Positions 141-63,912 of a stretch of DNA of 64,000 nucleotides are shown here, piece after piece (positions within the stretch are counted from its first letter, which is position 1; each line of letters opens with the position of its first letter). This DNA is from Candidatus Staskawiczbacteria bacterium. Its GTDB lineage: Bacteria > Patescibacteriota > Minisyncoccia > Minisyncoccales > Staskawiczbacteraceae. Below the pieces are notes generated by a model. The model ran no database searches. It saw nothing but the letters and a program-made list of their open reading frames with translations, and was not told the DNA's origin. The stretch spans positions 544,148 to 608,147 of the forward strand of contig JBAZUH010000001.1 in assembly GCA_041661545.1 (NCBI GenBank), given 5' to 3'. The position numbers and the translations under genes are program-made.

Positions 141-1070
141 TTAATTTATATAGTATTTACCGTTGTCGGAATTTATAAATCCTTTCAACTGCATTAACGA
201 TAAAGTGGTGCCAAGCTGGGCAACAGGGGTTGAAAAAAGTCGAGCCATTTCGTCAGCTTTCATAGACTCTCTTTTTAATTGTTCAATAATTTTATTCTCT
301 AAGGTGCCACGCTTACCCGCCGACTTGTCCGCCGAAGTTTTAACGAGGGTGGAAGCCTTTTGTGCACTAGGCAATATTTTAAAAAAATCTAAAATTTGTT
401 TGGCCTCAATTATTGGTTCAGCTCCCTCTCTTATCAATTCAATTGTTCCTTTTGAAACTTCGCTAGTAATAGGGCCCGGCACAGCAAAAATTTTTCTATT
501 AAATTTTTTAGCATAATTTGCAGTAATTAAAGAACCCGACTTTAAAGCAGCTTCTGTAACTAAAACTGCCTTACAAAGCCCGGCCACAATTCTATCTCTC
601 TGCACAAAAGAATAATTTGTTGGCTTAAACCCCGGCTCATATTCTGAAATTATTAGACCGTTATTATCTAAAATTTTATGATAAAGTTCTTTTTGCTGTG
701 GAGGAAAAATTATATCCACCCCACATGGCATAACAGCAATTGTTTTTCCACCGCATTTTACAGCAGCAGAATGAGCCGCTTCATCGCCTCCATACATAAA
801 TCCAGAAACAATTGTAATTCCAGATGCAGCAGCTTCTGTTACCAACTGCTCGGTTACTCTTCTGCCATAAGAAGTTAAATGACGCGAGCCTACAACCGCC
901 AAACAATTTTCTCCCGCCGCAGCGGGATCCCGCCTATCGGCGGGAAAAAATGCATTCCAATTTCCTTTATAATACAATTTTTTAGGACCCGAACTTGCAA
1001 CAAGGTTTTTTAACGCCTCTTTTAAAGCTTTAGGATATTTTGAATCTGTAATTTCAACAGCTTCTACCAT
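141..1070 (-). CDS. dprA: DNA processing protein DprA (Smf)
   Basis: 309 aa with DprA core motifs LAVVGSRHLTSYG, IVSGFMYGGDEAAH, FVQRDRIVAGL and LVTEAALKSGSLITA. Lies next to comM. Confidence 0.9.
   Translation of the reverse strand: MVEAVEITDSKYPKALKEALKNLVASSGPKKLYYKGNWNAFFPADRRDPAAAGENCLAVVGSRHLTSYGRRVTEQLVTEAAASGITIVSGFMYGGDEAAHSAAVKCGGKTIAVMPCGVDIIFPPQQKELYHKILDNNGLIISEYEPGFKPTNYSFVQRDRIVAGLCKAVLVTEAALKSGSLITANYAKKFNRKIFAVPGPITSEVSKGTIELIREGAEPIIEAKQILDFFKILPSAQKASTLVKTSADKSAGKRGTLENKIIEQLKRESMKADEMARLFSTPVAQLGTTLSLMQLKGFINSDNGKYYIN
315..355. repeat. GC-rich ACCCGCC-type element inside dprA, in frame
   Basis: ACCCGCCGACTTGTCCGCCGAAGTTTTAACGAGGGTGG stands out from the AT-rich coding context. 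It encodes the linker ..TSADKSAGKRGT.. and shares the ACCCGCC...GGGT termini with the other copies listed below. Confidence 0.5.
912..945. repeat. GGATCC-core double-hairpin element (copy 1), in frame in dprA
   Basis: TCCCGCCGCAGCGGGATCCCGCCTATCGGCGGGA folds as two adjacent hairpins (TCCCGC/GCGGGA and TCCCGCC/GGCGGGA). It encodes FPADRRDPAAAGE just before the conserved AVVGSR motif. Confidence 0.8.
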
Positions 1071-10081: not shown

Positions 10082-12241
10082 ATGGCTACGAAAGATACGT
10101 TTGAGATAAAGGTTGGCGAAAAGCCAGTCATAATTGAAACTACAAATTGGACCGAGCAAGCATCGGGCTCTTGTTTAGTTTCTTGCGGAGAAACAAAAGT
10201 TTTAGTAACAGCAGTTCTATCCCCTTTCACAAGAGAGGGCATAGATTATTTTCCACTAACAGTTGAATATGAAGAAAGATTTTATGCTGCAGGAAAAATA
10301 TTTGGTTCAAGATTTGTAAGAAGAGAAGGCCGAGCAACAGATGAAGCAGTTTTAACCGCCCGCATGATTGACCGAGCAATAAGGCCTTTGTTTCCAAAAG
10401 ATTTTATGAAAGAAGTTCAAGTAATTGTTACTTGTTTATCTTGGGATGGCGAAAATGACCCAGATATTTTAGGAATGATTGGCGCTTCATTTGCATTAGC
10501 TACTTCACAAATTCCGTGGAATGGGCCCTTAGGAGCTATTAGAATTACTAAGAATAATGGCGAGTGGGTTTTTAATTCTAATTACGAACAAAGAAAAGAT
10601 TGCGACATGGATTTAACTTTATCAGCCATAGAAAAAGATGGCGACATATTAGTTAACATGATTGAAATGGGAGCAAAAGAAATTTTAGAAAAAGATGTTT
10701 TAGAAGCCTATGAAGTTGCTAAAAAAGAATTGAAAAAAATTATTGATGCACAAATTTTAGCTGTCAAAAAAATTGGCAAAGAAAAAAATGTTTTTGAGCC
10801 AGCAGTTGAATTAGATATTGCTAATGAAATAAAAGAATGGCTGGGAGACAAATTAGAAAAAGCAATAACTAATGCTCCAAAAGGAGAAAAAAATCTTGGT
10901 GCTACTGAAATTTTAAAACAAGAATTAGTAAAATATTTATCAGAAAAATATCCTGAGGGAAGCCTGCCTGCCGGTAGGCAGGGAAAAGCCAGCCAAGTTT
11001 TGTCTTTTTTTGAAAAAGAAATTGAACGAATAATAATTAAAAATATCATTGATAAAAATTACAGACCAGATGGTAGAAAAGATGTTGATATAAGACCATT
11101 ATCTTGCGAAGTAGCAGTTTTACCAAGAGCTCATGGAAGCGCAGTATTTTTTAGAGGATTAACAAGAGTGCTTTCAATTTTAACTTTAGGAGGGCCCGGT
11201 GACTCACAAATTTTAGAAGGAATGGAAATTATTGGTAAAAAAAGATTTATGCATCACTACAATTTTCCTCCATTTTCATCTGGAGAAACAGCTCCAATGA
11301 GAGGGCCAAAAAGAAGAGAAATTGGGCACGGTGCATTAGTTGAAAAAGCTTTATTGCCTGTTTTACCAGAAATAGAAAAATTTCCTTATACAATAAGAAT
11401 TGTTTCTGAGGTGGTTTCTTCAAATGGGTCTACTTCTCAGGCTTCAACTTGTGCAGCTTGCATTGCTTTAATGGACGCAGGAGTACCAATAAAAGAACCT
11501 GTGGCAGGAATTTCTGTTGGATTGGCCAAAGATGAACAAACAGGAAAATATAAAGTGTTAACCGATATTCAGGGCCCAGAAGATCATTATGGAGATATGG
11601 ACTTTAAAGTTGCAGGAACTCGCAACGGAATTACTGCAATTCAAATGGATATTAAAATAGACGGCATTGATAAAAAAATCATGGAAGAAGCTTTAAACAG
11701 AGCAAAAGATGCAAGATTTAAAATACTCGATATAATAAAAAAAGAAATATCCGAACCAAGAAAATCTTTATCGCCTTATGCTCCTAAAATTGCTACCCTA
11801 ACAATAAATCCTTCAAAAATTGGGGAAGTTGTTGGACCAAAGGGCTCGGTTATAAATAAAATAATTGAAGCCTGCGGAGGAGTAGCAATTGACATAGAAG
11901 ATTCTGGATTTGTTTCTGTAACAGGACAAAACCAAGAAGATGTTGATAAAGCTGTTGCCTGGATTAAAGGAATTGTTAGAGAAGTTCAAGTTGGAGAAAC
12001 CTTTCAAGGAAAGGTTGTAAAAATTATGGACTTTGGTGCTTTTGTAGAATTGTTTCCTGGCACCGATGGCATGGTTCATATTTCAAAATTTGTAAAAGAA
12101 AGAATAAATAGCGTTACAGAGGTGGTGCATGAGGGGCAAATAATTCCAGTAAAAGTAATGTCTGTTGATGAGCTAGGCAGAATAAATTTGTCAGCAATTG
12201 ACGCAGGGTTTCATCCAACTCCCAAGAACGAAAAGCACTAA
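10082..12241 (+). CDS. pnp: Polynucleotide phosphorylase
   Basis: 719 aa with two RNase PH domains, KH (GPKGSVINKI) and S1 (GKVVKIMDFGAFVEL). Confidence 0.95.
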   Translation: MATKDTFEIKVGEKPVIIETTNWTEQASGSCLVSCGETKVLVTAVLSPFTREGIDYFPLTVEYEERFYAAGKIFGSRFVRREGRATDEAVLTARMIDRAIRPLFPKDFMKEVQVIVTCLSWDGENDPDILGMIGASFALATSQIPWNGPLGAIRITKNNGEWVFNSNYEQRKDCDMDLTLSAIEKDGDILVNMIEMGAKEILEKDVLEAYEVAKKELKKIIDAQILAVKKIGKEKNVFEPAVELDIANEIKEWLGDKLEKAITNAPKGEKNLGATEILKQELVKYLSEKYPEGSLPAGRQGKASQVLSFFEKEIERIIIKNIIDKNYRPDGRKDVDIRPLSCEVAVLPRAHGSAVFFRGLTRVLSILTLGGPGDSQILEGMEIIGKKRFMHHYNFPPFSSGETAPMRGPKRREIGHGALVEKALLPVLPEIEKFPYTIRIVSEVVSSNGSTSQASTCAACIALMDAGVPIKEPVAGISVGLAKDEQTGKYKVLTDIQGPEDHYGDMDFKVAGTRNGITAIQMDIKIDGIDKKIMEEALNRAKDARFKILDIIKKEISEPRKSLSPYAPKIATLTINPSKIGEVVGPKGSVINKIIEACGGVAIDIEDSGFVSVTGQNQEDVDKAVAWIKGIVREVQVGETFQGKVVKIMDFGAFVELFPGTDGMVHISKFVKERINSVTEVVHEGQIIPVKVMSVDELGRINLSAIDAGFHPTPKNEKH
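10963..10983. repeat. GC-rich hairpin insert in pnp, in frame
   Basis: CCTGCCT-GCCGGT-AGGCAGG, a 7-bp stem encoding ..SLPAGRQGK.. in the variable linker region. Confidence 0.6.
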
Positions 12242-13810: not shown

Positions 13811-14566
13811 TTATATGCCTGTATTTTGATTTTCTTGTGACTCAGTAAAGTTTCCATTTTCAAATTCAACCTCCTCACCCACTTGCGAAGACACACCTTT
13901 TTTTGGCACCTGCAATTGTTTTTGAAGATGGTTAATTTGAGATGATAACAATTGTTTTGTGTTTCTTGCATCGGTTATTATTTTTTCAATTAAACCTTGT
14001 AAGAACTTTTCTCTTTCTACTAATTCATTATCTTTGGCCTTATAATCAATAAGCAATGATTCATATTTCTTAATCCAGTCTTTTTTCTCAGCCCGGTCTT
14101 CTTTTAATATTTCTAAAAACTCTCGGTCAACGGTTATTTGATCGGGCGCATAAGCGGTGGGCTCGGCGCTTCTGCGATTTGGCTTAGGTTCTTCTGACCG
14201 CTTAAGCGGTTCTTCTAACTGACTAGATATTTCACTAGACTGTTCCGGTACCACCGCATAAGCGGTAGGCTCGGCGCTTAAGCGGTTTGGTTCAGGTTCA
14301 TCTGACCGCTTAAGCGCTTCTTCAGACCGCTTAAGCGGTACCGCATAAGCGGTTTCTTTTGCTATAGCTTCTAACTCTTTAACCCAAAAATCTTCTTTTA
14401 AAAGAATAACATTCCCCACTCCTTTGTCATACCTTTCAGTTAAAACTCCCTCTAATTTTTGTGGGTCTACCAATCTATACTTTCTAATTCTTCTTCTAAT
14501 CCTAACATCTGGAACTTCATATTTTTGAATAAATTCTTGTATTGTTAAAAATTCGTTATTATCCAT
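13811..14566 (-). CDS. HTH-like (excisionase/MerR-type N-terminus) protein with an internal tandem repeat and a C-terminal coiled coil
   Basis: 251 aa. N-terminus FLTIQEFIQKYEVPDVRIRRRIRKY. Two repeats of about 36 aa (..LKRS[DE]EP[EK]PNR.SAEPTAYA..). The CDS contains 4 perfect and 3 degenerate copies of the palindrome found upstream. Confidence 0.5.
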   Translation of the reverse strand: MDNNEFLTIQEFIQKYEVPDVRIRRRIRKYRLVDPQKLEGVLTERYDKGVGNVILLKEDFWVKELEAIAKETAYAVPLKRSEEALKRSDEPEPNRLSAEPTAYAVVPEQSSEISSQLEEPLKRSEEPKPNRRSAEPTAYAPDQITVDREFLEILKEDRAEKKDWIKKYESLLIDYKAKDNELVEREKFLQGLIEKIITDARNTKQLLSSQINHLQKQLQVPKKGVSSQVGEEVEFENGNFTESQENQNTGI

Positions 14567-14588
14567 TTTTTTTGTTTTATTTTTATAC

Positions 14589-14724
14589 CGCTTAAGCGGT
14601 AGGGGTGACCGCTTAAGCGCTTTTAGGCACCGCTTAAGCGATACCGCTTAAGCGCTTTTAGGTACCGCTTAAGCGATACCGCTTAAGCGCTTTTAGGTAC
14701 CGCTTAAGCGATACCGCTTAAGCG
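14589..14724. repeat. Array of 8 perfect CGCTTAAGCG palindromes (alternating 21/14-bp spacing)
   Basis: Copies start at 14589, 14610, 14631, 14645, 14666, 14680, 14701 and 14715. The higher-order unit is ACCGCTTAAGCGATACCGCTTAAGCGCTTTTAGGT (35 bp). The array lies directly upstream of the 13811-14566 gene. Confidence 0.95.
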
Positions 14725-14774
14725 ATTATTGATTAATTCTATCAACCAGATAAAGTGATGTCAACCTTAACAAT

Positions 14775-16093: not shown

Positions 16094-17518
16094 TCACGGA
16101 ATGTCCGTAGATTTGGCTATCGCTTGGGCGGGGTTTTGAGCCTTCCATGCGCCCGAATCAGTAGAGCTGTAGACATATCCGCCCATGACCGTCGCAGTCA
16201 TACTGCGAAAGTCTACGGATGCGGACACGTCAGACCAATTCTGCTTGTCGGCAACCGGCTCCCAATCCACCCCGAAATTGCCAGAGGTGTAAAGCGAGCC
16301 TCCAGACTCTGCAGCCAAGAATCGACGACCATCGCCCGAACACTTAATGGCCACCCATTTCCGAACATTGTCGGTTAACCGTGGTTGCCACGTCTGCATA
16401 AAGTCAGTGGAGATGTAGATATATCCACCATTTACAGTGGCGCCCCAAAACTGGGCGTTATAATTGGTTGTTAGGTCCGTCCAATCGCGGGACTCGCCAA
16501 CGGGCTTCCATGTCTGGCCCCCGTTGTAGGACGCATAAAGCCAACTATTGGAGGCTGCTACCCCCCGAAATTGACCACCAAAATCCATCTCGCCAGCCAC
16601 CCAATTCGGGCCAGCAAACCCGGTCGTCTCCCAGCTATCCCCCCAATCATACGTCTGCCAGATGTATCCACCTGGATCAACGGCCATCAGAAGTTGGCCA
16701 TCATCAGAAGTTGCTACGGACCTCCACCGGATTTTCAGGTCGCCCTCATAGGGCAAGTCGTATGCTTTCCAGGTCTGACCATAGTCAGCGGACCCATATA
16801 ACTCTCCATCAAGGGTCCCTATAATCTGGTTTTGGCCATAATAGGACACGGCGACGCAGGAAGGTTTATCTATATCTACGGTCCGCCAAGTGCTCCCGCC
16901 ATCGGCGGAGACATAAACTGGCGCGTTGCCAGCGATAAGCGTCCTATATTTTCCGTCACCAGACATGGAAGCACCGTTCCATGCAAGACTGGGACTGCCC
17001 ACGGCAGGTGAGGGGGGATTGGGTGTGTTACCACCATCGCCACCACCACCATTGCCACCGCCAGGACCTCTGCTCCCATCTCCTCCACCAATGGGGCCGA
17101 AAGAATAAAATGGAACAGATTCCTTGGTCTTATGCCTGATTATGGGGCTCCAATTAGCATAAGCCGTTGGTGTCGTCGCAGGATTAGATGTTGTTGTGCG
17201 CGAACCAAAGTTGGTTCGTGCAATGCTCGCCTGCGGGGCAACAACCTCTGCTCGAGGAATATTCGTGCCAGCTCTCTTTAAACTGACTTGGCCTTCGTTG
17301 TGTCCACTGGATTTCAAATTCCAGGGCTTGTATTTGTTCGCGGTCAAGCCTTGACCCGACCTAAACAATTTCAACGACGGCCTTTCGGGCTCGCTGAGCC
17401 ACACTACAAAAAAGATCGGCACTAGCAGTGCCAGTAGAGTAGCGCCCAGTTTCTTGAGCCCTATCTTCTGCAAAACCGCCGTCGCGGTAGAAATCTTCTC
17501 AAGGCTTTTTGTGTTCAT
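16094..17518 (-). CDS. Membrane-anchored Asp-box (BNR) repeat beta-propeller protein, on a GC-rich island
   Basis: Seven SxDxGxTW-like boxes (SADGGSTW, SADYGQTW, TYDWGDSW, SYNGGQTW, STDFMQTW, TSGNFGVDW, STDSGAW). Gly/Pro linker and TM anchor. ATG at 17518 is preferred over the GTG at 17581 because AAGGAG sits 10 nt upstream. Confidence 0.7.
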   Translation of the reverse strand: MNTKSLEKISTATAVLQKIGLKKLGATLLALLVPIFFVVWLSEPERPSLKLFRSGQGLTANKYKPWNLKSSGHNEGQVSLKRAGTNIPRAEVVAPQASIARTNFGSRTTTSNPATTPTAYANWSPIIRHKTKESVPFYSFGPIGGGDGSRGPGGGNGGGGDGGNTPNPPSPAVGSPSLAWNGASMSGDGKYRTLIAGNAPVYVSADGGSTWRTVDIDKPSCVAVSYYGQNQIIGTLDGELYGSADYGQTWKAYDLPYEGDLKIRWRSVATSDDGQLLMAVDPGGYIWQTYDWGDSWETTGFAGPNWVAGEMDFGGQFRGVAASNSWLYASYNGGQTWKPVGESRDWTDLTTNYNAQFWGATVNGGYIYISTDFMQTWQPRLTDNVRKWVAIKCSGDGRRFLAAESGGSLYTSGNFGVDWEPVADKQNWSDVSASVDFRSMTATVMGGYVYSSTDSGAWKAQNPAQAIAKSTDIP

Positions 17519-17604
17519 GGCTGACTTTCTCCTTTCCAAAAAGTTTTCAATGCTAGAAGTGGTTGACAAAATGTCTTCCACGTTGCTTCTAGCGTGCTAC
17601 TTCA

Positions 17605-17674: not shown

Positions 17675-18535
17675 ATGAATTTAACTTCTCCAACCATAAT
17701 AAAAGAACTTCTTTCAAAATATAAAACCCGGCCTTCAAAAGGATTGGGGCAAAATTTTTTAATAGATAAAAATGTTTTAAGAAAAATTATTGAAGCTTCA
17801 AATATAAAACCAACAGATATTATTTTAGAAGTGGGGCCGGGCATTGGCATACTAACTCAAGAATTAGCCAAACATGCAAAAAAAGTTATAGCAATTGAAA
17901 AAGATTTTACAATGTGCGAAGTTTTAAAAGAAACTTTGTCTGATCTTAAAAACATTCAAATTGAAAATTGTGATATTTTAAAATTTATTGAAAATTGGAA
18001 ATTGAAAATTGAAAATTATAAGGTAGTTGCCAACATTCCATATTATTTAACTTCGCCATTAATTAGAAAATTTTTAGAAAACCCACCAGGTGGGGAACAG
18101 CCACAAGAAATAATTTTAATGATACAAAAAGAAGTTGCTCAAAGAATTTGTGCAAGCCCGCCAAAAATGAGTTTGCTAGCAGTGTCAGTGCAATTTTATG
18201 CAGAACCTAAAATTATAAGTTATGTTACAAAAAATTGTTTTTGGCCTGCACCCAAAATTGATTCTGCAATAATAAATATCAAGCCCAAAAATAATTTTAA
18301 TAAAGAAATAGATGTTGATGCATTTTTCAAAGTTGTTAAAGCAGGTTTTTCGCAACCAAGAAAACAACTTGTGAATAACTTGACTACCTTAAAATATTTA
18401 GATGGTGTAAAATTAACAAAAGAAGAAATTTCTAATTGGCTTTCTAAAAATAATTTAAAATCTAATCAACGGGCCGAAAGCCTAACAATCAACGATTGGG
18501 AAAATCTAACAAACAGTTTTTTAACTTTAAAATAG
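17675..18535 (+). CDS. rsmA: 16S rRNA (adenine1518/1519-N6)-dimethyltransferase
   Basis: 286 aa with GQNFLIDKNVLRKI, EVGPGIGILT and VVANIPYYLTSP. Confidence 0.92.
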   Translation: MNLTSPTIIKELLSKYKTRPSKGLGQNFLIDKNVLRKIIEASNIKPTDIILEVGPGIGILTQELAKHAKKVIAIEKDFTMCEVLKETLSDLKNIQIENCDILKFIENWKLKIENYKVVANIPYYLTSPLIRKFLENPPGGEQPQEIILMIQKEVAQRICASPPKMSLLAVSVQFYAEPKIISYVTKNCFWPAPKIDSAIINIKPKNNFNKEIDVDAFFKVVKAGFSQPRKQLVNNLTTLKYLDGVKLTKEEISNWLSKNNLKSNQRAESLTINDWENLTNSFLTLK

Positions 18536-21289: not shown

Positions 21290-22468
21290 TTACAGGCCGT
21301 CCAAATCGTCCGGCCCCAACTCTATCGCTGGCGGAGGCGAACCTCCACCAGGCTGATTGCGTCTGTCACCACGACGATTCCCCCCGTCTCCCCGAGCCAA
21401 TGGCTGAAGAGCATTGCCGAGTTCGCGTGCCAACGTAACACCGGCTGCGAAGTTGGCCTCAATCGGTTGGCCACCGCTGGTGACATCAAACTTGGTGAAT
21501 CCGCGACCAGCGAGCGCCTGCGATCGTAGTTGCTCAAGCGCCTGTTTATGTTGAGCATATTCACCACTTCTTTTCAGCTTGGCAACGAGTTTCTTCATCG
21601 CCACCGAATCCGACGAGTCAACTCCCGCGAGCCTTGCTTCTTCGGTAATCCATTCTTGCATGGCAAGCTGGACCGGGCCAAAAACCCGCGCCTTTTCGCC
21701 TTCAGCCAACAATTGCTGTTTGCTTTTGGCCTCCAAGGCTTCCTGATATCCGGGCTGGTATCCCACATCTTCAACGATGACAGAATTTTCCAGAATCCGA
21801 AGACCCCAGTCATTTTCCATCGTCGTGAAAACAGGAAGCGATCCCTGATTAACCAGGTCTTGCCAAAGCTGGGCGCCATTACCCCTGGCGGCTTGAGCAC
21901 GCTCTTGTGAACCGCCACGAACCCATGCTCGCAACGTTGAATCCATCCGCCGTATAACCTGAGCGCTAACGTCGCGGGGTGCCACAAACAGCCATTTGTA
22001 CAGGTTGACGATTCTCATGACGGAAACGAATTTCACGTCAAGTGGAACGCTCTCAGGAGCTGCCGTTTCTGCTTTAGAGATCATGGGTTCAGGAGCGACG
22101 TTTCCGACGCGGACATGAATGCCCGCACCAAACATGTCGGCACTTCCATTCTGCTGAGCGTATCGAACGGCCGAGACAAACGGCCATAGATAAATCACCC
22201 AGCCCCCAAAACGGCACATAAACCATGACCCCTGGCCATAGCCGTCGGGGTAATCTCCCTCGACAACGTTGCCGTTTTCATCGAAGCCATGCCCCCTGAA
22301 ATTCATCCCTAGGTAGCAGAAGCTACCGAAGCTGAGAAAGGCAATGGCTGTGCCTTCTCGGATGATTGCCACCCTAATAATACGCAACGCCCAGAGGAGG
22401 AAGATTGTGAAAATCATCCACCAAAGGTGATCGCTCAGCCAATCGAACACTGAATATATCGCTTGCAT
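21290..22468 (-). CDS. Membrane-anchored SPFH/band-7-like protein, on a GC-rich island
   Basis: Start taken at MQAIYSVFDW (ATG at 22468). N-terminal TM. The segment IIREGTAIAF...VKFVSVMRIVNLYKWLFVAP.DV resembles an SPFH fold pattern. Coiled-coil and Gly/Arg-rich tail. Confidence 0.45.
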   Translation of the reverse strand: MQAIYSVFDWLSDHLWWMIFTIFLLWALRIIRVAIIREGTAIAFLSFGSFCYLGMNFRGHGFDENGNVVEGDYPDGYGQGSWFMCRFGGWVIYLWPFVSAVRYAQQNGSADMFGAGIHVRVGNVAPEPMISKAETAAPESVPLDVKFVSVMRIVNLYKWLFVAPRDVSAQVIRRMDSTLRAWVRGGSQERAQAARGNGAQLWQDLVNQGSLPVFTTMENDWGLRILENSVIVEDVGYQPGYQEALEAKSKQQLLAEGEKARVFGPVQLAMQEWITEEARLAGVDSSDSVAMKKLVAKLKRSGEYAQHKQALEQLRSQALAGRGFTKFDVTSGGQPIEANFAAGVTLARELGNALQPLARGDGGNRRGDRRNQPGGGSPPPAIELGPDDLDGL

Positions 22469-22609
22469 TTTGGTTGTTGGTTGTTGGTTGTGGTTGGTTG
22501 GTTTTGAACAGTCACTTAACGGTTGGCGCGAGAACACCTCGCTCCACACAGGAATTACCCTGCGTTCATAATGAAAACCGTGTTTGACAATGTTCTTTCA
22601 GATACATTT

Positions 22610-44187: not shown

Positions 44188-45243
44188 TTAGAATAGGCCG
44201 CTTTGCTTGCGGAGATGGCCTAAGCCGAGGTGGTTGTAGGCAAGTGCAGTGGCCATTCGGCCTTTTGGGGTGCGTTCAAGTAAGCCACATTGCATTAAAT
44301 AGGGTTCATAAATATCTAAAATTGTTTCTTCTTCTTCCATAGCAGCTGCTGCTAAAGATTGCAATCCAACTGGGCCTCCTCCAAATTTTTCTATTAAGGC
44401 TAATAAAATATTTCGGTCGCTTGGTTCTAGGCCCATTAAATCTACCTCTAAAGAATTAAGGGCATGTTCGGCAATTGCTTTTGTTATTATTTCAGCATTT
44501 TGAACTTGGGCAAAATCTCTTACTCTTTTTACAAGCCTGTTTGCGACTCTTGGGGTAAACCTTGAGCGCTCGGCAATTGCTGTTATGGCTTCGGGTTCCA
44601 TTTTTATTTTTAAAAGTTTTCCAGATCTTTCAATTATTTTTTTAACATCTTCTATATTATAAAAATTAAGTTGAAAAGTGGCACCAAATCTGTTTCGTAG
44701 GGGAGCAGATAATAACCCAGGGCGAGTGGTGGCTCCAATTAAAGTAAACTTAGGCAATTTTAGCTCCATTGTACGGGCCATGGGCCCTTTGCCCAAAATT
44801 AAATTTAATTTATATTCTTCTAGTGCAGGATATAAATACTCTTCAATAGTTTTGTTAATTCTGTGTATCTCATCTAAAAACAAAACATCACCCTCTGACA
44901 AATTTGTTAAAATTGCAGCTAAATCTCCTGCTCTTTCTAGGGCAGGGCCAGAAGTAGATTTAATTTTTTTACCCATTTCGTTGGCCACTATATAGGCTAG
45001 GGTGGTTTTTCCTAAGCCTGAGTTTCCATAAAGCAATAAATGGTCTGGACTTTGACCTCTTTGTTTGGCTGCAGTAATAATTACTTGTATATTTTCTTTA
45101 ATTTTATCTTGACCAACATAATCATGCCAAGAAGTCGGCCTTAAAGCCGAATCTAGAGTTTCATCCGTTGCCTCGCCAAAGCTTTTAGCGGAGGCGGGTT
45201 CTTTCCTGTTGTTGGTTGGTGTAGGGGTTGACATATGATACAA
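44188..45243 (-). CDS. ruvB: Holliday junction branch-migration helicase RuvB
   Basis: 351 aa with GNSGLGKTTLA, LFLDEIHR and RFG..F.L.FY. Confidence 0.95.
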   Translation of the reverse strand: MYHMSTPTPTNNRKEPASAKSFGEATDETLDSALRPTSWHDYVGQDKIKENIQVIITAAKQRGQSPDHLLLYGNSGLGKTTLAYIVANEMGKKIKSTSGPALERAGDLAAILTNLSEGDVLFLDEIHRINKTIEEYLYPALEEYKLNLILGKGPMARTMELKLPKFTLIGATTRPGLLSAPLRNRFGATFQLNFYNIEDVKKIIERSGKLLKIKMEPEAITAIAERSRFTPRVANRLVKRVRDFAQVQNAEIITKAIAEHALNSLEVDLMGLEPSDRNILLALIEKFGGGPVGLQSLAAAAMEEEETILDIYEPYLMQCGLLERTPKGRMATALAYNHLGLGHLRKQSGLF

Positions 45244-49698: not shown

Positions 49699-50613
49699 AT
49701 GGAAAAAAATCAGAGGTTAATTATTATAGATTCTAATGCATTGTTGCACAGGTCGTTTCATGCTTTGCCACCGCTAAAAACAAAATCAGGGCAGGAGACT
49801 GGGGCTGTTTATGGATATTTGCTTACACTTTTTAAGGCACTAACTGATTTATGTCCCTCCGGGACATCTCCCGAAGGGAGAAAACCTCTCTATATTGTTG
49901 CTTGTTTTGATACAAAAGGGGCAACATTTCGCCACGAAATGTATAAAGATTATAAAGTGCAAAGGCCAGCAACTCCTAGTGGAATTGTTTCACAAATTCC
50001 TGTGGCAAAAGAAGTTGTTGAAGCCTTGGGCATTCCTATTTTTGCTAAAGAGGGGGTAGAGGCCGATGATTTAATTGCTACTATTTGCACAAAAAATTCA
50101 GAATTAGAAATTTTTATTGTTTCTGGAGATATGGATAATACTCAACTAGTTAATGAAAAGATAAAAGTTTATACTTTGGGCAAAGGGATAAAAGATACAA
50201 TTATTTATGATATTAACAGGGTGCGAGAAAGGTTTGGAGTAGAGCCTTCGCAAATGGTAGATTTTAAAGCTTTAATGGGTGATGCTTCTGATAACATCCC
50301 AGGAGTTGAAGGTATTGGAAAAAAAACAGCAGCAGAAATAATACAAAAATATGGCAGTATAAAAAATCTTTATGAGGAGTTGGCCACAGACACAGCTGTT
50401 TTAAAACCAAAAGTAAAAGAAGCTTTAAAGCAAAACAAAGAATCTGCTTTAATGTCTCTTGAATTAGCACGAATGAAAGCAGATGTTGATATAGATTTTA
50501 AAATTGAAGATTGTAAATTTGGAAATTTTGACAAAAATAAAGTTGCGGAAGTTTTTAATAGTTTAGAATTTTATAGTCTCGTTGACCGCTTGTCACAGTT
50601 GGGCTATAATTAA
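49699..50613 (+). CDS. Stand-alone 5'-3' exonuclease (Pol I N-terminal/FEN-type)
   Basis: 304 aa with IIDSNALLHRSFHALP, GVEADDLIAT and H3TH motif GDASDNIPGVEGIGKKTA. Confidence 0.87.
   Translation: MEKNQRLIIIDSNALLHRSFHALPPLKTKSGQETGAVYGYLLTLFKALTDLCPSGTSPEGRKPLYIVACFDTKGATFRHEMYKDYKVQRPATPSGIVSQIPVAKEVVEALGIPIFAKEGVEADDLIATICTKNSELEIFIVSGDMDNTQLVNEKIKVYTLGKGIKDTIIYDINRVRERFGVEPSQMVDFKALMGDASDNIPGVEGIGKKTAAEIIQKYGSIKNLYEELATDTAVLKPKVKEALKQNKESALMSLELARMKADVDIDFKIEDCKFGNFDKNKVAEVFNSLEFYSLVDRLSQLGYN
49853..49881. repeat. GC-rich double hairpin insert in the exonuclease gene, in frame
   Basis: GTCCC-TCC-GGGAC A TCTCCC-GAA-GGGAGA, encoding LCPSGTSPEGRK between conserved blocks. Confidence 0.7.
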
Positions 50614-51255: not shown

Positions 51256-52167
51256 ATGCCAGAGCTACCCGAAGTAGAAACAACAGTGAAAGGTTTAAAT
51301 GCAAAGGTCCTTAATAGGACCTTTGTTTCTGTTTGGTCTGATTGGAAAAAGTTAGTTAAAAAACCGAAAGATTTTTTGCAATTTGAAAAACAAATAAAAA
51401 ATAAAAAAATTATAAAAATATGGCGTAGAGCCAAAAATATAATATTTGATTTGTCTGGAGGCCTCTCGCTTTTAGTGCATCAAAAAATGACGGGTCATAT
51501 GTTGGTGGGCAAGTGGTCCCGCCACAGCGGGATCCCGCCCGAGGCGGGAAGCATATGGAAACCAATAAAAGAAGGTCCGCTTAATGATCCATATAATAGG
51601 TTTTTGCATTTGATATTTTTTCTTGATAATAAAGAAATGATAGCTCTTTCAGATGCTAGAAAATTTGCAAAAGTTGAGTTATGGGAAAAAAAAGAATTAG
51701 AAAGCGAACTTAAAAAAATAGGGCCTGAGCCCTTGGAAAAATCTTTTACTTTTGAAAAATTTAAAGAAAATTTGTTATGGCAAAACCCGCCTTCGCCAAG
51801 GCTACGGCAGGGCACAGTAAAGCAGATTTTAATGGTGCCAGAAGTGATAGCTGGCATTGGAAATATTTATGCATCAGAAATTTTATGGTGGGCAAAAGTT
51901 CATCCCCAAAAAAGTGTTGCAAAGCTAAATGAAAAAGAGTTAAGGTTAATTTATAAAGCTATAAAAAGCGTTTTACAAAAAGCAGTTAAATTGGGTGGAG
52001 AAAGTTTCTCTGATTATAGAAAGCCAGATGGAACCAAAGGAGATTTTGATACAGAAAGAAGAGTTTATAAAAGAGAGGGGCAAAAGTGTGGCAGGTGTAG
52101 CGTAAAAATTAAAAGAATTAAATTTGGCGGTAGAAGCACCTTTTTCTGCCCCAAATGCCAATCATGA
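51256..52167 (+). CDS. mutM: Formamidopyrimidine-DNA glycosylase
   Basis: 303 aa with MPELPEVET, GIGNIYASE and zinc finger CGRC..CPKC. Confidence 0.92.
   Translation: MPELPEVETTVKGLNAKVLNRTFVSVWSDWKKLVKKPKDFLQFEKQIKNKKIIKIWRRAKNIIFDLSGGLSLLVHQKMTGHMLVGKWSRHSGIPPEAGSIWKPIKEGPLNDPYNRFLHLIFFLDNKEMIALSDARKFAKVELWEKKELESELKKIGPEPLEKSFTFEKFKENLLWQNPPSPRLRQGTVKQILMVPEVIAGIGNIYASEILWWAKVHPQKSVAKLNEKELRLIYKAIKSVLQKAVKLGGESFSDYRKPDGTKGDFDTERRVYKREGQKCGRCSVKIKRIKFGGRSTFFCPKCQS
51517..51549. repeat. GGATCC-core double-hairpin element (copy 2), in frame in mutM
   Basis: TCCCGCCACAGCGGGATCCCGCCCGAGGCGGGA, encoding SRHSGIPPEAG. Confidence 0.85.
51785..51819. repeat. ACCCGCCT...GGCAGGGCACAGTA element, in frame in mutM
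   Basis: ACCCGCCTTCGCCAAGGCTACGGCAGGGCACAGTA, encoding NPPSPRLRQGTV. Confidence 0.7.
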
Positions 52168-53114
52168 TTTATTTTATATACGGCGAAGATTCATACAGGT
52201 CAAAAAAGAAATTAGAAGAAATAGTTTTAAGTTACAAAGAAAAACATAAATCTGGGTTAAACTTAATTTATGTAGATACTCTTACCAACAGCTTTGGCGA
52301 TTTTTATAACAGTTTGAAAATTAATTCCATGTTTGCTGAAAAAAAATTAATAGTTTTGAGAAATTTATTTTTAACTAAGAGCGAATCAGTTTCTGGTTGG
52401 CAAGAAGATTTTTTAGAGAATATAAAAAAAATAGAAGAATTAAAAGACATAGTTGTTGTGTATGAAAGTAGTTTGCCAGATAAAAGAACAAAACTTTTTA
52501 AAGCTTTACAAAAAAATACCAAGTGCCAGGAATTTAACTTATTAACAGATGTTAATTTAAAAAAATGGATAGCTAGTGAGTTTTTATTACAAAAAGTAAA
52601 AATAAATAATGATGCAGTTGATTTGCTTGCCAGCTATATTGGGAGTGATTTGTGGCGAATGGCAAATGAAATAAATAAATTATCAAACTACAAAAAAGGA
52701 ACAATAGTATTAAAAGAAAATGTGGAACTATTAGTAAAGCCTAATATAGATAATGATATTTTTAAAACAATAGATGCCCTAGCTTCTAAAAATAAAAAAT
52801 TAGCCCTTTCTCTTTTGCATAAGCACATGGATGGGGGAGACTTTCCTTTATATTTATTATCTATGATTGCATATCAGTTTAGAAATCTTTTGATAATAAA
52901 AGATTTATCCGCTCAAGGTGGACCAGCCTCGGGTTGGCAAAAAAAATCTGGTTTGCACCCCTTTGTTATTCAAAAAAGTAGTTATTTGTGTAGTCAATTT
53001 TCTATGGTTGAATTGAAAAAAATTTACCAAAAAATTTTTCAAATAGATTTAAATATAAAAACAGGAAAAATTGAAGCAGAAACAGCTATAGACTTATTAA
53101 TTTCTGAAATCTAA
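52155..53114 (+). CDS. holA: DNA polymerase III delta subunit
   Basis: 319 aa. N-terminus IYFIYGEDSYRSKKKLEEI, with length and organisation typical of HolA. Confidence 0.75.
   Translation: MPIMIYFIYGEDSYRSKKKLEEIVLSYKEKHKSGLNLIYVDTLTNSFGDFYNSLKINSMFAEKKLIVLRNLFLTKSESVSGWQEDFLENIKKIEELKDIVVVYESSLPDKRTKLFKALQKNTKCQEFNLLTDVNLKKWIASEFLLQKVKINNDAVDLLASYIGSDLWRMANEINKLSNYKKGTIVLKENVELLVKPNIDNDIFKTIDALASKNKKLALSLLHKHMDGGDFPLYLLSMIAYQFRNLLIIKDLSAQGGPASGWQKKSGLHPFVIQKSSYLCSQFSMVELKKIYQKIFQIDLNIKTGKIEAETAIDLLISEI
52908..52937. repeat. GC-rich double hairpin insert in holA, in frame
   Basis: TCCGC-TCAAG-GTGGA CCAGCC-TCG-GGTTGG, encoding SAQGGPASGW. Confidence 0.55.
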
Positions 53115-53141
53115 AAACCGCCCTGTTGGGCGGCTTTTTTT
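53113..53141. terminator. Bidirectional terminator (holA / rpsT)
   Basis: AAAAACCGCCC-TGTT-GGGCGGCTTTTTTT. Confidence 0.85.
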
Positions 53142-56525: not shown

Positions 56526-57812
56526 ATGAGCGTTAAAGAAATAATTCACCCGATTAAATACCGCGAAGCGTTGATTTCGTTTTTAACGAAATCATTTAAC
56601 CGGGTAAAAAAATTTATACCGAAATTTTTGATAAGAATTTATCATTATAAATTAGCTTTGTTGGGAGCTGTGGTTTTTGGTTTTCCTGGCCTTAATAAAA
56701 ATATAAAAATAATAGGGGTAACAGGCACCAGTGGGAAATCAACTACAGTAGATTTTGTAACCAGAATTTTTGACGAGGCAAATGAAAAGGTGGCTTCGGT
56801 GTCTTCTATTAGATTTAAAGTTGCAAATAAAGAATGGGAGAATAAATATAAAATGACAATGCCTGGCCGTTTTGTAATTCAAAAACTATTGAGCCAGGCA
56901 AAAAAAGCAGGTTGTAAATATGTTGTTTTAGAGGTTACATCAGAGGGAATAAGACAATTTCGTCATAAATTTATAAATTTTGATTGTGTGGTTTTTACTA
57001 ACTTAACACCCGAACATATTGAAAGTCATGGAGGGTTTGAAAATTATAAAAAAGAAAAATTAAAATTATTTAAAGAAAATAAAAATATACATATTATAAA
57101 TATAGATGACAAAAATTCAAAAGAATTTTTGGATATTCCAGCTAAACAAAAAATTGAATTTTCTATCAAAGATGCAGAAAATATAAAGTTTGATTCCAAC
57201 TTAATTAGTGGGTTTAATATTTATAATGCTTTATCTGCTATTTCTGTTGCAAGAGTTTATGGGATTAGTTTAGATGTTTGTAAAAAAGCTTTAGAAAAAA
57301 TAAAAGTTATTCCAGGAAGAATGGAAGTGGTGTTAGAATTTCCTATTAAAGTTATTGTTGATTATGCGCATACCCCCGACCAACTTGAAGCAGTTTATAA
57401 AACATTTTCCGCCAAAGGCGGATCCGCCTTTGGCGGAAGCCTCGTTTGTGTTTTAGGTTCTTGTGGTGGGGGAAGAGACAAATGGAAAAGGCCTGTTTTA
57501 GGAGAAATAGCAAAAAAATATTGTAAAGAAATTATAATTACCAACGAAGACCCATATGACGAAGATCCACTTTCTATTATGAAAGAAATAGAAAGTGCCC
57601 TGTTGTATGACGGGGCTAATTCTAAGCACCATATGATTTTAGACAGGAAAGAAGCCATAGAAAAGGCAATAAAGCTTGCTAAACCTGGAGATGTGGTTAT
57701 AATTACAGGAAAGGGGTCTGAACCTTGGATGTGTCTAGAAAATGGACGCAAAATACCATGGAACGATAAGCAAATAGCACAAGATGCTGTTAAAAAATTT
57801 TTTACCCCGTAA
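56526..57812 (+). CDS. Mur ligase family protein (MurE-like)
   Basis: 428 aa with IGVTGTSGKSTT, DYAHTPDQLE, GGGRDKWKRP and GKGSE. Confidence 0.8.
   Translation: MSVKEIIHPIKYREALISFLTKSFNRVKKFIPKFLIRIYHYKLALLGAVVFGFPGLNKNIKIIGVTGTSGKSTTVDFVTRIFDEANEKVASVSSIRFKVANKEWENKYKMTMPGRFVIQKLLSQAKKAGCKYVVLEVTSEGIRQFRHKFINFDCVVFTNLTPEHIESHGGFENYKKEKLKLFKENKNIHIINIDDKNSKEFLDIPAKQKIEFSIKDAENIKFDSNLISGFNIYNALSAISVARVYGISLDVCKKALEKIKVIPGRMEVVLEFPIKVIVDYAHTPDQLEAVYKTFSAKGGSAFGGSLVCVLGSCGGGRDKWKRPVLGEIAKKYCKEIIITNEDPYDEDPLSIMKEIESALLYDGANSKHHMILDRKEAIEKAIKLAKPGDVVIITGKGSEPWMCLENGRKIPWNDKQIAQDAVKKFFTP
56548..56605. repeat. AT-rich three-way-junction element B2 (within the annotated 5' end of the Mur ligase gene)
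   Basis: ACCCGATTAAAT ... ATTTAACCGGGT closing stem (1 mismatch) enclosing CGC-GAA-GCG and GATTTCG-TTTTTAA-CGAAATC. Confidence 0.55.
57417..57448. repeat. Perfect 32-nt palindrome with GGATCC core (copy 4, variant), in frame in the Mur ligase gene
   Basis: TTCCGCCAAAGGCGGATCCGCCTTTGGCGGAA, encoding SAKGGSAFGG between DYAHTPD and the GGGRDK block. Confidence 0.85.
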
Positions 57813-59764: not shown

Positions 59765-59936
59765 GTTATGAGGGGGTGCGAGATTCATCTCAAGGACATA
59801 ATATTTTGTAACGAAAGAGGAACAAGTATATACCTAAATTCATTGTCCGAATTAGGCTCGAGAAAAATCCAATATCGTTGCAAATTATTTACCCCCTCCA
59901 CAAAGTCCGCTCCGACGCACGTCGGAGCGGTTTTTG
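59765..59936 (+). ncRNA. Candidate small RNA of about 170 nt, family unknown
   Basis: Bounded by the promoter above and an intrinsic terminator (CCGCTCCGAC-GCAC-GTCGGAGCGG plus TTTTT, 59907-59935). Long-range pairing GAGGGGGT/ACCCCCTC and hairpin CCTAA(A)TT/AATTAGG. Confidence 0.4.
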
Positions 59937-62098: not shown

Positions 62099-63330
62099 AG
62101 TTTATAGCAGATTTTCATATACACTCAAAATATTCTAGGGCAGTGTCTCCTTTAATGAATTTAGAAAATTTAGCTAAGTGGGCAGAAATAAAAGGAGTAA
62201 AAGTTTTAGGCACAGGTGATTTTACTCACCCTAAATGGCTTGGCGAAATAAAAAAACAACTAAGCCCCGCAGAGCGGGGTCTTTTTTCCCGCCACAGCGG
62301 GATCCCGCCAAAGACGGGAAAGCTTGGCAGTAAAACTCGTTTTATTCTTACAACTGAGATAAGTTGTATATATAAAAAACTAGGAAAAGTTAGAAAAATT
62401 CATATTATTGTTTTTGCTCCATCAATAGCCACGGTAGAAAAAATAAACTTAGCATTATCTAAAATTGGCAATTTACATTCAGACGGTAGGCCAATTTTGG
62501 GGCTAGATGCAAAAGAGTTAGTAAAGATTGTTTTAAATATAGATAAAAATTGTTTAATAGTGCCAGCTCATGCCTGGACACCATGGTTTTCTATTTTTGG
62601 CTCAAAGTCAGGATTTAATTCTTTAGAGGAGTGTTTTGAAGAATATACAAAATATATTTATGCAATTGAAACTGGGTTGTGTTCAAATCCTGCTATGAAT
62701 TGGAGAATATCTAAACTAGATAAAATTACTTTAATTTCTAACAGTGATGCACACTCTCTTGCTAAAATTGGACGGGAAGCAAATGTTTTTGATACGGAGC
62801 TGAGTTATAAGGGGATTGTTGAGGCCATTAAGTTTCCAGAAAAAAAGTTTTTATATACTATAGAATTTTTTCCTGAAGAAGGTAAATATCATTATGATGG
62901 TCATCGTAATTGTGGTATAAGTTTAGCTCCTCAACAATCTAAAAAGAATAATAATATATGTCCTAAATGCAACAAACCCTTGATAATAGGGGTTTTAAAT
63001 AGGGTAGAAGAATTGGCTGATAGGCCAGAAGGATTTTTGCCTAAAAAAGGAATTCCATTTAAAAGTTTAATTCCTTTAAATGAAATAATAGCTGAATCAA
63101 TTGGCGTTTCAACAGCATCAAAAAAAGTTATAAAATATTATGATAATTTAATAAAAAATTTAGGACCAGAGTTAGAAATATTATTAGAATCAACAGAAAA
63201 AGATATAAAAGAAAAATCTTTACCAGAAATTGCCAAAGGGGTTATAAAAATGCGCAAGGGGCGCGTTTTTATTGAGCCAGGATATGACGGTGTTTATGGA
63301 AAAATTAATATTTTATTTAATAATGGTTGA
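62095..63330 (+). CDS. PHP-domain endonuclease Q-like protein
   Basis: 411 aa with FIADFHIHSKYSRA, PAHAWTPWF, SNSDAHS and Zn-ribbon CPKCNKP. Confidence 0.72.
   Translation: MKFIADFHIHSKYSRAVSPLMNLENLAKWAEIKGVKVLGTGDFTHPKWLGEIKKQLSPAERGLFSRHSGIPPKTGKLGSKTRFILTTEISCIYKKLGKVRKIHIIVFAPSIATVEKINLALSKIGNLHSDGRPILGLDAKELVKIVLNIDKNCLIVPAHAWTPWFSIFGSKSGFNSLEECFEEYTKYIYAIETGLCSNPAMNWRISKLDKITLISNSDAHSLAKIGREANVFDTELSYKGIVEAIKFPEKKFLYTIEFFPEEGKYHYDGHRNCGISLAPQQSKKNNNICPKCNKPLIIGVLNRVEELADRPEGFLPKKGIPFKSLIPLNEIIAESIGVSTASKKVIKYYDNLIKNLGPELEILLESTEKDIKEKSLPEIAKGVIKMRKGRVFIEPGYDGVYGKINILFNNG
62287..62319. repeat. GGATCC-core double-hairpin element (copy 3), in frame in the EndoQ-like gene
   Basis: TCCCGCCACAGCGGGATCCCGCCAAAGACGGGA, encoding SRHSGIPPKTG. 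The first 24 nt are identical to copy 2. Confidence 0.85.
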
Positions 63331-63885: not shown

Positions 63886-63912
63886 AGAGCGGGCATACAA
63901 TGCCCGTTTTTG
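63886..63912 (+). terminator. Terminator of greA
   Basis: CGGGCA-TACAA-TGCCCG followed by TTTTT. Confidence 0.75.

Follow-up and report, generated by a model that had tools for sequence, protein, structure and literature searches.

Short GC-rich hairpin elements in genes of a Candidatus Staskawiczbacteria genome are probably copies of small mobile DNA families

Why do genes of an AT-rich bacterial genome carry short, GC-rich, hairpin-forming patches between their conserved blocks? We addressed this question in a 64,000-nt stretch of a Candidatus Staskawiczbacteria genome (assembly GCA_041661545.1, contig JBAZUH010000001.1, positions 544,148 to 608,147 of the forward strand; hereafter the window), which has a GC content of 33.6% and comes from a host of the candidate phyla radiation (CPR). 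An earlier note had listed four such patches, in the genes for a stand-alone 5'-3' exonuclease, holA, pnp and rsmA, as in-frame inserts. All four lie at the coordinates and in the genes claimed, and the gene names were borne out by Pfam; the patches are GC-rich, in frame and placed between conserved blocks. Three of them, in the exonuclease gene, holA and pnp, are real inserted elements, and for these sites the phenomenon is more general than first noted; for rsmA the case is weak. The inserted units belong to three families: E and H are 30-nt double hairpins, and P is a perfect palindrome of 18-20 nt that gives a 21-nt insert. We consider it likely that the three patches are copies of short, GC-rich, palindromic and non-autonomous families of selfish mobile DNA, which are tolerated in protein loops, decay afterwards and are most likely moved in trans. 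Loci and protein orthologs retrieved for comparison are designated L001, L002 and so on, and P0001, P0002 and so on, respectively.

In the exonuclease gene, the patch at 49853-49881 (GTCCCTCCGGGACATCTCCCGAAGGGAGA, encoding LCPSGTSPEGRK) belongs to a family E element that is missing in 118 of the 120 best homologs; the two carriers are the window's own protein and P0002. Most other homologs are 288-297 aa long, versus 304. The empty site in relatives reads GATTTA|AAACC, GACTTA|AAAGC and similar (the bar marks the insertion point), and the filled site in the window reads GATTTA-TGTCCCTCCGGGACATCTCCCGAAGGGAGA-AAACC. Exactly 30 nt were gained and the target was not duplicated. In alignments with PDB entries, the ten extra residues CPSGTSPEGR face a gap both in the Mycobacterium Pol I (6vde) and in Taq (..LKALKE..DGD.AVIVVFD), the Taq sequence given in the earlier note being correct. 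An AlphaFold model of the exonuclease (mean predicted local distance difference test score, pLDDT, 67) places the insert as coil with pLDDT < 50 between helix 35-51 and strand 65-69.

In pnp, orthologs read ...EKH-P-G-E-GKE-K-QVL and the window reads ...EKY-PEG-SLPAGRQ-GKA-S-QVL. The core of the window insert is one C>T change away from the perfect palindrome CCTGCCTGCCGGCAGGCAGG. This palindrome is intergenic in L008, L011 and L124, stands beside an E copy in L098 and occurs also in L208. As a close comparison we used a sister genome (GCA_964998225.1), which is 79-90% identical to the window for rsmA, exonuclease and pnp. Its pnp is empty at the window site and carries a clean 21-nt CCTGCCTGCCGGCAGGCAGG insert at another site, AAAGGA|GAAAAA, with no direct repeat. 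Inserts of the LPAGRQ type were found at two or three pnp positions and in the rsmA of other genomes.

The holA patch belongs to family H, the canonical form of which (TCCGCC-CAA-GGCGGA CCAGCC-TCG-GGCTGG) makes two perfect 6-bp hairpins (-13.9 kcal/mol, z -4.8). The window copy differs by three C>T changes, each synonymous and in the third codon position, which keep the peptide and bring the stems down to G.T pairs. Its peptide, SAQGGPASGW, is the same as that inserted in the exonucleases P0116 and P0120. Further H copies lie in the exonuclease gene of L005, L006 and L007, in the tsaE gene of L002, which belongs to the sister genome, at a different position of holA in L004 and L009, and in L015, L102 and L162. 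Clean pairs of filled and empty sites were obtained for the exonuclease and for holA of L004 and L009. At the exonuclease site, GATTTT|AAAATT, the insert is exactly 30 nt and no direct repeat is present. The elements are added as whole units with a length that is a multiple of three, and the resolved double-hairpin insertions lie at the junction between a T-run and an A-run (TTT|AAA, TTTA|AAA, TTT|GAA) with no target duplication. Decay after insertion, as seen in holA and pnp, is AT-biased and mostly synonymous.

The rsmA patch is of a different quality. The window has 3 codons more than 103 of the 120 orthologs, and 11 of the 120 share an extension of the PP[GSAD] type. At the same place the sister genome has CCCCGCCAAGTGGGGG, the hairpin of which (CCCCGC-CAA-GTGGGG) is better than that of the window (CCCAC-CAG-GTGGG). 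Although the support is weak, the patch is best seen as probably a single hairpin of this general type, inserted long ago and eroding differently in the two lineages.

To determine if the hairpins exceed what coding sequence gives by chance, we shuffled synonymous codons within each gene for 57 coding sequences (CDSs) of the window (54.4 kb, 300 shuffles) and counted hairpins with 5 or more base pairs in the stem and 4 or more G:C pairs. There were 32 such hairpins, versus 9.4 ± 3.0 in the shuffled genes; strong hairpins (at least 5 G:C pairs) numbered 13 versus 1.3 ± 1.2, and directly adjacent double hairpins 4 versus 0.01. None of the 300 shuffles reached the observed value for any of the three classes. 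The excess is therefore no by-product of protein sequence plus codon usage, and the equal rate in shuffled controls that the earlier note had held to speak against it was not seen. The four patches, all described as hairpin-forming, were unequal in strength. When they were folded as single strands of DNA, those of the exonuclease gene (-9.2 kcal/mol, z -3.1) and pnp (-8.0 kcal/mol, z -2.8) did better than shuffles, and those of holA (-4.8 kcal/mol, z -0.5) and rsmA (-4.1 kcal/mol, z -1.0) did not. The holA fold is weak because its stems need G.T pairs. Canonical copies of the families fold with z from -4.6 to -6.9, far beyond shuffles. The hairpins of the elements have stems of 5-7 bp and loops of 3-4 nt, and intact copies have DNA fold z values of -2.8 to -6.9. 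Rfam at gathering thresholds gave four tRNAs alone in the window and no RNA family over the patches.

The patches had been described as singletons. This holds within the window, where the E element has one copy even when 3 mismatches are allowed, and fails beyond it: the elements in exonuclease, holA and pnp belong to families with multiple copies in public data. A 29-nt core pattern of E (GTCCCNNNGGGACATCTCCCNNNGGGAGA) matched at least 120 metagenome contigs, which span 32-55% GC. Viral contigs contained no exact match to the E or H patterns, and hence gave no sign of a phage vector. From 80 retrieved loci (82 copies) we derived the E consensus aaTTTnT-GTCCC-TNC-GGGAC-A-TCTCCC-GNA-GGGAGA-cAAt, outside of which the information is zero. 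The T at position -1 is conserved in 97% of copies, and more than 70 copies have very sharp, uniform junctions. In the loops, T-N-C and G-N-A are kept beyond the needs of pairing. C-GNA-G is a very stable DNA mini-hairpin motif, and E has one loop of this type on each strand. Of the middle bases of the loops, position 7 is T in 62% of copies and position 22 is C in 38%, A in 32% and T in 29%. Judged from these separate base frequencies, complementarity of the two middle bases looks unlikely, and the alternative of one long hairpin is therefore not specifically supported for E.

Twenty of the 82 E copies lie cleanly inside long open reading frames (ORFs), with at least 50 open codons on either side. 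They use all six combinations of frame and orientation (6, 3, 3, 3, 3 and 2 copies), so that one and the same element gives six unrelated peptides. Stops borne by the element interrupt none of the 20, which disposes of translational bypass or element-borne stops for these copies. The elements have stop codons in almost no frame and therefore leave the gene unbroken; judged from open frames, they appear to be read through as 7-10 extra residues between conserved blocks. Neither orientation with respect to the host gene is strongly preferred (21 versus 13). The hosts include genes for LeuRS, SecA, PheT, an S41 protease and a DUF4147/MOFRL protein, and the element lies outside the Pfam domain matches or at their edges. 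The remaining copies are near gene ends or intergenic, some of them in tandem or beside other palindromes.

Two candidate identities of E were discarded. E is not a CRISPR repeat: nearly all loci are single-copy, and the two-copy loci have spacers of 19 nt or 87 nt that hold other palindromes. Nor is it a diverged copy of families A or M, which the window also carries (Table 1), since allowing up to 3 mismatches yields no such copy in the window and its stems are different.

Some E-bearing loci have additional features. In L158 (1100-1330), tandem E copies lie within a 116-nt repeat unit that also has a P-like palindrome (CCTGCCTACCGCAGGTAGG), and in L111 (1-120) two E copies are 19 nt apart in an AT-rich spacer; E elements therefore nest or cluster between genes. 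The E-carrying host genes of L119, L124 and L143 hold further GC-type inserts. Examples of such inserts are ...ATPAAEGEPRPFGREDSPQS... in PheT, ...GGGRASATL... and ...GLPAEAPRSGAKAG... in SecA and ...NLPAGGEKP... in LepA. Several families therefore coexist in the same organisms.

A third exonuclease ortholog, in L132, has E at the same codon with another loop base. The E copies of the window and L001 are identical in 30 of 30 positions, and their flanks differ within 6 nt on both sides. We built a tree from 121 exonuclease proteins with the insert columns removed (100 bootstraps). The three E-bearing proteins formed an exclusive clade in none of the 100 bootstraps, and the window protein was the sister of P0004, which is without E, in 92. 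By this phylogeny, E occupies the same codon in three lineages that are not sisters. A single ancestral insertion that was inherited vertically was rejected as unlikely on the gene tree, and allele transfer by homologous recombination is also unlikely, as the flanks diverge within 6 nt either side of an identical element. The gene has only about 4 TTTNAAA sites, two of which are the E site and the H site. Few target sites per gene, together with selection for tolerant loops, can explain the repeated hits.

The wider distribution was determined from retrieved loci. Families H, A, M, S and G occupied 27 distinct sites in 0.86 Mb of CPR loci versus none in 1.0 Mb of non-CPR control loci; for family P, the numbers were eight sites versus one. 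GC double hairpins had a density of 3.0 per 100 kb in Staskawiczbacteria loci versus 0.3 in controls. Their modal length was 30 nt and their commonest flanks were TTT and AAA. Identical 29-30-mers were found in unrelated genes and in independent assemblies (NCBI, JGI, ENA, Logan). The families circulate in Staskawiczbacteria and in other metagenome contigs, probably of CPR organisms, recovered from groundwater, lakes and sediment. Their occupancy of sites changes fast between sister genomes: seven indels of 3 aa or more separate the window from the sister genome in 3,653 aligned residues, and 4 of these are such elements, two per genome. Across exonuclease, pnp and rsmA (120 orthologs each) we counted 94 sporadic inserts of at least 5 aa, which are rich in S, Q, G, P and A (1.8- to 2.6-fold enrichment) and poor in K, I, D, V and M. 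The elements seem to be one of the main origins of small insertions in the proteins of this lineage.

The window contains further elements of this kind (Table 1). No family has more than three copies in it, and all window copies are inside genes. Family S was also found in the exonuclease of L002 (PASAKSYGEA) and in ruvB of L007. Families H and M have the module TCCGCC-nnn-GGCGGA in common, and a hybrid in L162 joins hairpin 1 of M to hairpin 2 of H. Variants of M preserve their stems via paired changes. The suggestion that the four patches are diverged members of the other window families was mostly wrong. E, H and P each form a family of their own, the canonical copies of which lie outside the window, and H alone shares a module, with the window M. 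The companion idea of one insertion mechanism fared better for the double-hairpin families E, H, A and M, which share a plan of two hairpins in about 30 nt and T-run/A-run flanks; P may not share this targeting.

Table 1. Genes, GC-rich elements and a target site in the window (positions in nt of the window)
Feature	Position	Strand	Evidence or remark
Stand-alone 5'-3' exonuclease (FEN-like)	49699..50613	+	Pfam 5_3_exonuc_N and 5_3_exonuc; PDB alignments
holA (DNA polymerase III delta)	52155..53114	+	Pfam
pnp (polynucleotide phosphorylase)	10082..12241	+	Pfam
rsmA/ksgA	17675..18535	+	Pfam RrnaAD
Family E element, two adjacent hairpins	49852..49881	+	30-nt insertion TGTCCCTCCGGGACATCTCCCGAAGGGAGA, translation CPSGTSPEGR
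Empty target GATTTT|AAAATT in exonuclease	50488..50511	+	Filled by family H in L005, L006, L007
Family H, decayed copy TCCGCTCAAGGTGGACCAGCCTCGGGTTGG, encoding SAQGGPASGW	52908..52937	+	3 C>T from canonical TCCGCCCAAGGCGGACCAGCCTCGGGCTGG
Family P palindrome CCTGCCTGCCGGTAGGCAGG in net 21-nt (7-codon) insert, encoding (S)LPAGRQ	10963..10982	+	Ortholog alignment
rsmA GC patch ACCCACCAGGTGGGGAACAGCC, weak 5-bp hairpin	18081..18102	+	May be a single hairpin of old origin, now decayed
Double hairpin of family A, fpg gene	51517..51549	+	
Double hairpin of family A, dprA gene	912..945	-	
Family A copy with degenerate second hairpin, PHP-domain gene	62287..62319	+	Further hairpin CCCCGCagaGCGGGG upstream at 62265-62279
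Family M double hairpin and perfect palindrome, Mur-ligase gene	57408..57437	+	Hairpin module common with family H
Family S 30-nt GC element CCCGCCTCCGCTAAAAGCTTTGGCGAGGC, PASAKSFGEA, in ruvB (44188-45243)	45170..45198	-	Not listed in the earlier note

Several other features were recorded in the course of this analysis. GC hairpins lie between genes at 53118-53133 (CCGCCCtgttGGGCGG, four bases past the holA stop), 59907-59930 (10-bp stem, CCGCTCCGACgcacGTCGGAGCGG) and 63890-63906 (CGGGCatacaatGCCCG); these could act as terminators, or could belong to the same pool of elements as its intergenic representatives. A tandem array at 14297-14726, which lies in ORF 13811-14566 (-) and the intergenic stretch that follows it, repeats with a period of 35 nt (3.3 copies at 98% match) and with related periods of 14 and 21 nt. 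It is built around the palindrome ACCGCTTAAGCGGT, and the overlapping ORF had no Pfam match. The ORFs 16094-17581 and 21290-22549 (-) have about 45% GC in a 34% GC genome. They were considered as foreign DNA with a transposase, an idea that was dropped: ORF 16094-17581 matches Sortilin-Vps10 (BNR-type) repeats, has an ortholog beside rsmA in the sister genome (L210) and is native, and ORF 21290-22549 is without a Pfam match. The fpg ortholog in L012 (11430-12000) is apparently split in two ORFs, possibly by a frameshift, as a pseudogene or through an assembly error. Orthologs of pnp, exonuclease and rsmA (P0121-P0360) and the loci L004 (737-759), L009 and L011 contain further recurrent GC-type insert peptides: PSTSSGQA and PSTGSGQA (DNA CCTTCGACAAGCTCAGGGCAGGC, no obvious hairpin), GLPAQA (palindrome CTGCCTGCGCAGGCAG), PALSGAEG, PASAQGF and PEGY or PEGH. 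This variety suggests many more families of elements beyond those named here.

How might such elements move and persist? In the explanation that we favour, they would be selfish passengers and not functional parts of proteins, and coding copies would persist solely where a loop tolerates them. Loop tolerance and the small number of target sites per gene would then lead to recurrent insertion at the same codon. Mobility would most likely be catalysed in trans by an enzyme that recognises hairpins or cruciforms and is encoded elsewhere in the genome or the community. We favour such an enzyme on account of the sharp junctions and of the loop positions T-N-C and G-N-A, which are kept more strictly than pairing demands.

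A number of observations weigh against this explanation. Translation of the elements is judged from open frames alone. The P target is purine-rich (GGA|GAA), not TTT|AAA. Copy number per genome appears low, with one E in 64 kb of window and no E copy in about 340 kb of other named Staskawiczbacteria loci, which is unusual for repeats resembling repetitive extragenic palindromic (REP) sequences. The CPR origin of the E-bearing metagenome contigs is probable. A Pfam scan of 15 window ORFs, which was neither sensitive nor genome-wide, showed no transposase, reverse transcriptase or HUH enzyme, and a crude regular expression for REP-associated tyrosine transposases (RAYTs; HUH plus YxxxNP) had no match in 857 kb of loci, a weak test. 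Ortholog alignment, by which the earlier note had wished to confirm insertion, gave a clean gain of 30 nt for the exonuclease and 21 nt for pnp; rsmA had merely 3 additional codons, and the H copy in holA was net 0 versus most orthologs. The latter fills a ten-codon native slot (QESQTPYGFI, AEKGLMYNSI and similar). Comparison of window 52905-52943 with L008 and L009 showed that the nearest relative, L008, has a ten-codon gap at this slot; the copy may have arrived by deletion and then insertion, or by replacement during insertion. Adjacent native codons were lost with insertion elsewhere, too: the Mur-ligase gene gained 7 aa per 30 nt, fpg 7 aa per 33 nt and rsmA 3 aa, and native codons were partially replaced at tsaE (L002). 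Such a loss is not predicted for a clean cut-and-insert enzyme and may point to another mechanism.

The main rival takes up this last point. Here the same elements would spread with no dedicated enzyme, by template switching (copy choice) during replication via microhomology of the flanking T- and A-runs: a GC hairpin would stall the polymerase, and the TTT-ended nascent strand would pair at a donor copy, copy the element and return at the A-run. The lost codons at holA, mur, fpg, tsaE and rsmA are what an imprecise return would give, and the two-sided flank of a T-run and then an A-run is part of the target in empty sites. The lack of target duplication, the shuffling of hairpin modules among families (as in the M/H hybrid of L162) and the failure to see a transposase in the scanned ORFs and the 857 kb, in a lineage with very small genomes, also agree with this route. 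We nevertheless regard it as unlikely. It does not readily give more than 70 E copies with sharp, uniform junctions and a T at -1 in 97%, and conservation of the T-N-C and G-N-A loops beyond pairing suggests sequence-specific recognition. Moreover, A/T microhomology of 3-4 nt is ubiquitous at 34% GC and leaves the specificity unexplained by itself, and P copies insert without T- or A-runs.

Two further explanations are far less probable. The patches could be kept for the host, as RNA or DNA hairpins with a role in transcriptional or translational pausing, mRNA stability or protein binding, or as functional peptide loops. Similar GC hairpins just past genes could indeed be terminators (53118-53133 after holA; a canonical P after holA in L008), and E is identical in 30 of 30 positions in two diverged genomes. 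The three changes in holA keep the peptide and sense-strand G.U pairing, but this preservation of the peptide is expected anyway from a third-position C>T bias. We consider a host function very improbable, given the sporadic, polyphyletic distribution over close orthologs of essential genes, the occurrence of one element in all six frames with six unrelated peptides, and the decay of copies, the holA fold being no better than shuffles. Finally, each patch could have originated locally and independently, through slippage, quasi-palindrome correction or GC-biased repair in variable loops, or could be a sequencing or assembly artefact. The rsmA patch, a 3-codon length change in an ortholog-variable loop with a hairpin at chance level, fits such an origin, and chance would supply about 9 of the 32 CDS hairpins. 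A local origin of the other three patches, in the exonuclease gene, holA and pnp, is already contradicted by the identical 29-30-mers in unrelated genes and independent assemblies, by the exact unit lengths in filled-versus-empty pairs, and by codon-shuffle and non-CPR controls that fail to reproduce the pattern. As a general account, we find it hardly credible.

We return to the favoured explanation, that the elements are mobile selfish DNA, and to what would follow from it. It is quite possible, although we propose it tentatively, that CPR bacteria host an undescribed class of mobile elements of 21, 30 or 33 nt. The elements of this class would be multiples of codons, nearly stop-free in six frames and assembled from shuffled GC hairpin modules, would insert at TTT|AAA-type sites without duplication, and would be a leading source of loop insertions in the proteins of these organisms. 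They would match no known bacterial transposition system, being moved either by a new hairpin-specific enzyme or by enzyme-free template switching. Among the papers searched, none ties CPR, Patescibacteria or Parcubacteria to in-frame palindromic, REP, RPE-like or miniature inverted-repeat transposable elements (RPE, Rickettsia palindromic element; MITE for the last), which is no proof that the class is undescribed. If the proposal is true, these would be the smallest class of mobile DNA known in coding sequence (30 nt, about a quarter of the size of an RPE), active in CPR bacteria, the genomes of which are thought to be highly streamlined with little room for selfish DNA. They would explain many of the sporadic loop insertions rich in G, A, P, S and Q between orthologous CPR proteins, and annotation would have to mask them before proteins are aligned, placed on trees or modelled in three dimensions. 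Their sharp junctions, their defined target and the many filled and empty alleles in nature would make them a tractable case of how tiny hairpin elements without coding capacity move, a question shared with the GC clusters and double-hairpin elements of mitochondria. They could also serve as strain-level markers in groundwater metagenomes.

Which known systems do these elements resemble? RPEs, by the account of a review, are about 100-150 bp long, inserted in frame and translated, and comprise several families, RPE-1 to RPE-10 (Ogata et al. 2000, via PMC10969869). As far as that account goes, the common features would be palindromic selfish DNA in a reduced, AT-rich genome, in frame in unrelated housekeeping genes and also intergenic, extra peptide segments that the protein fold accommodates, and several coexisting families, translation being judged here from open frames. 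The differences from the description of these Rickettsia-specific elements lie in size (21-33 nt, four to five times shorter), sequence (none shared) and host (CPR). A T-run/A-run target without duplication and the use of six frames are resolved for the present elements.

REPs and the related REP doublets forming hairpins (REPINs) are mobilised by RAYT (Y1 HUH) transposases (PMC3116915, PMC3333891, PMC3733652, PMC2817692). Like REPs, the present elements are GC-rich imperfect palindromes in the range of 20-40 nt that keep their stems by paired changes and duplicate no target. E and M each join a unit to its reverse complement, and such a doublet could form two hairpins or one long hairpin, like a miniature REPIN. 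The defining mark of REPs is a GTAG or CGTC tetranucleotide at one end (PMC3733652). None of our families has it: the E consensus is T-GTCCC...GGGAGA, and H, M, A, P and S start with TCCGCC, TCCCGC, CCTGCC or CCCGCC. Whereas REPs have more than 100 copies per genome, are mainly extragenic and typically flank a RAYT gene of their genome, these elements are apparently low-copy, often intragenic and have a two-sided target, and no RAYT was seen in the 15 window ORFs (Pfam) or the 857 kb searched with the crude expression. They are not MITEs either, being 21-33 nt long versus about 50-500 bp and without target-site duplication; MITEs have terminal inverted repeats like those of a parent insertion sequence (IS), and no parent IS was seen in the window or the retrieved loci.

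Palindrome-associated elements derived from IS200/IS605 move by single-strand transposition with the Y1 enzyme TnpA (PMC6006769). As in substrates of this type, where the hairpins serve for recognition, each end has a hairpin, a short conserved sequence lies immediately 5' and no target is duplicated. Known IS200/IS605 elements are, however, several times longer, have a one-sided tetra- or pentanucleotide target and co-occur with a tnpA gene. In the present elements the two hairpins adjoin directly, constraint extends to either flank (TTTn|nAA) and the AAA on the downstream side is part of the target; TnpA was not found alongside them in the same Pfam scan of 15 ORFs and the weak HUH search of 857 kb. 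Like uptake signal sequences and DNA uptake sequences (USS/DUS), these are short motifs in all reading frames, with a preference for tolerant protein positions, and in inverted pairs after genes. USS/DUS of competent bacteria accumulate by point mutation and reach about a thousand or more copies per genome, unlike the present elements, each of which is a discrete insertion when compared with orthologs and has few copies per genome.

Double-hairpin elements of fungal mitochondria were reportedly described by Paquin et al. in 2000. Compared by description, they share with our elements two adjacent GC-rich hairpins in AT-rich DNA, near-identical copies across species, merging and shuffling of hairpin units, and copies both between genes and within genes for rRNA or protein. 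Those of Allomyces and Schizosaccharomyces are organellar, whereas the present ones reside in a bacterial genome with bacterial housekeeping genes. Yeast GC clusters show a putative AG target duplication; the present elements show none, have a TTT|AAA-type target, and their coding copies are strictly multiples of three. For the fungal double-hairpin elements and GC clusters, the mechanism of mobility is unexplained (PMC10085805; PMC4478555). By this comparison, the present elements would stand closest to RPEs in behaviour and to REPs and REPINs in size and form, whereas architecture and identity across species would place them nearest to the double-hairpin elements of mitochondria and the GC clusters of yeast. 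They would be a member of none of these groups.

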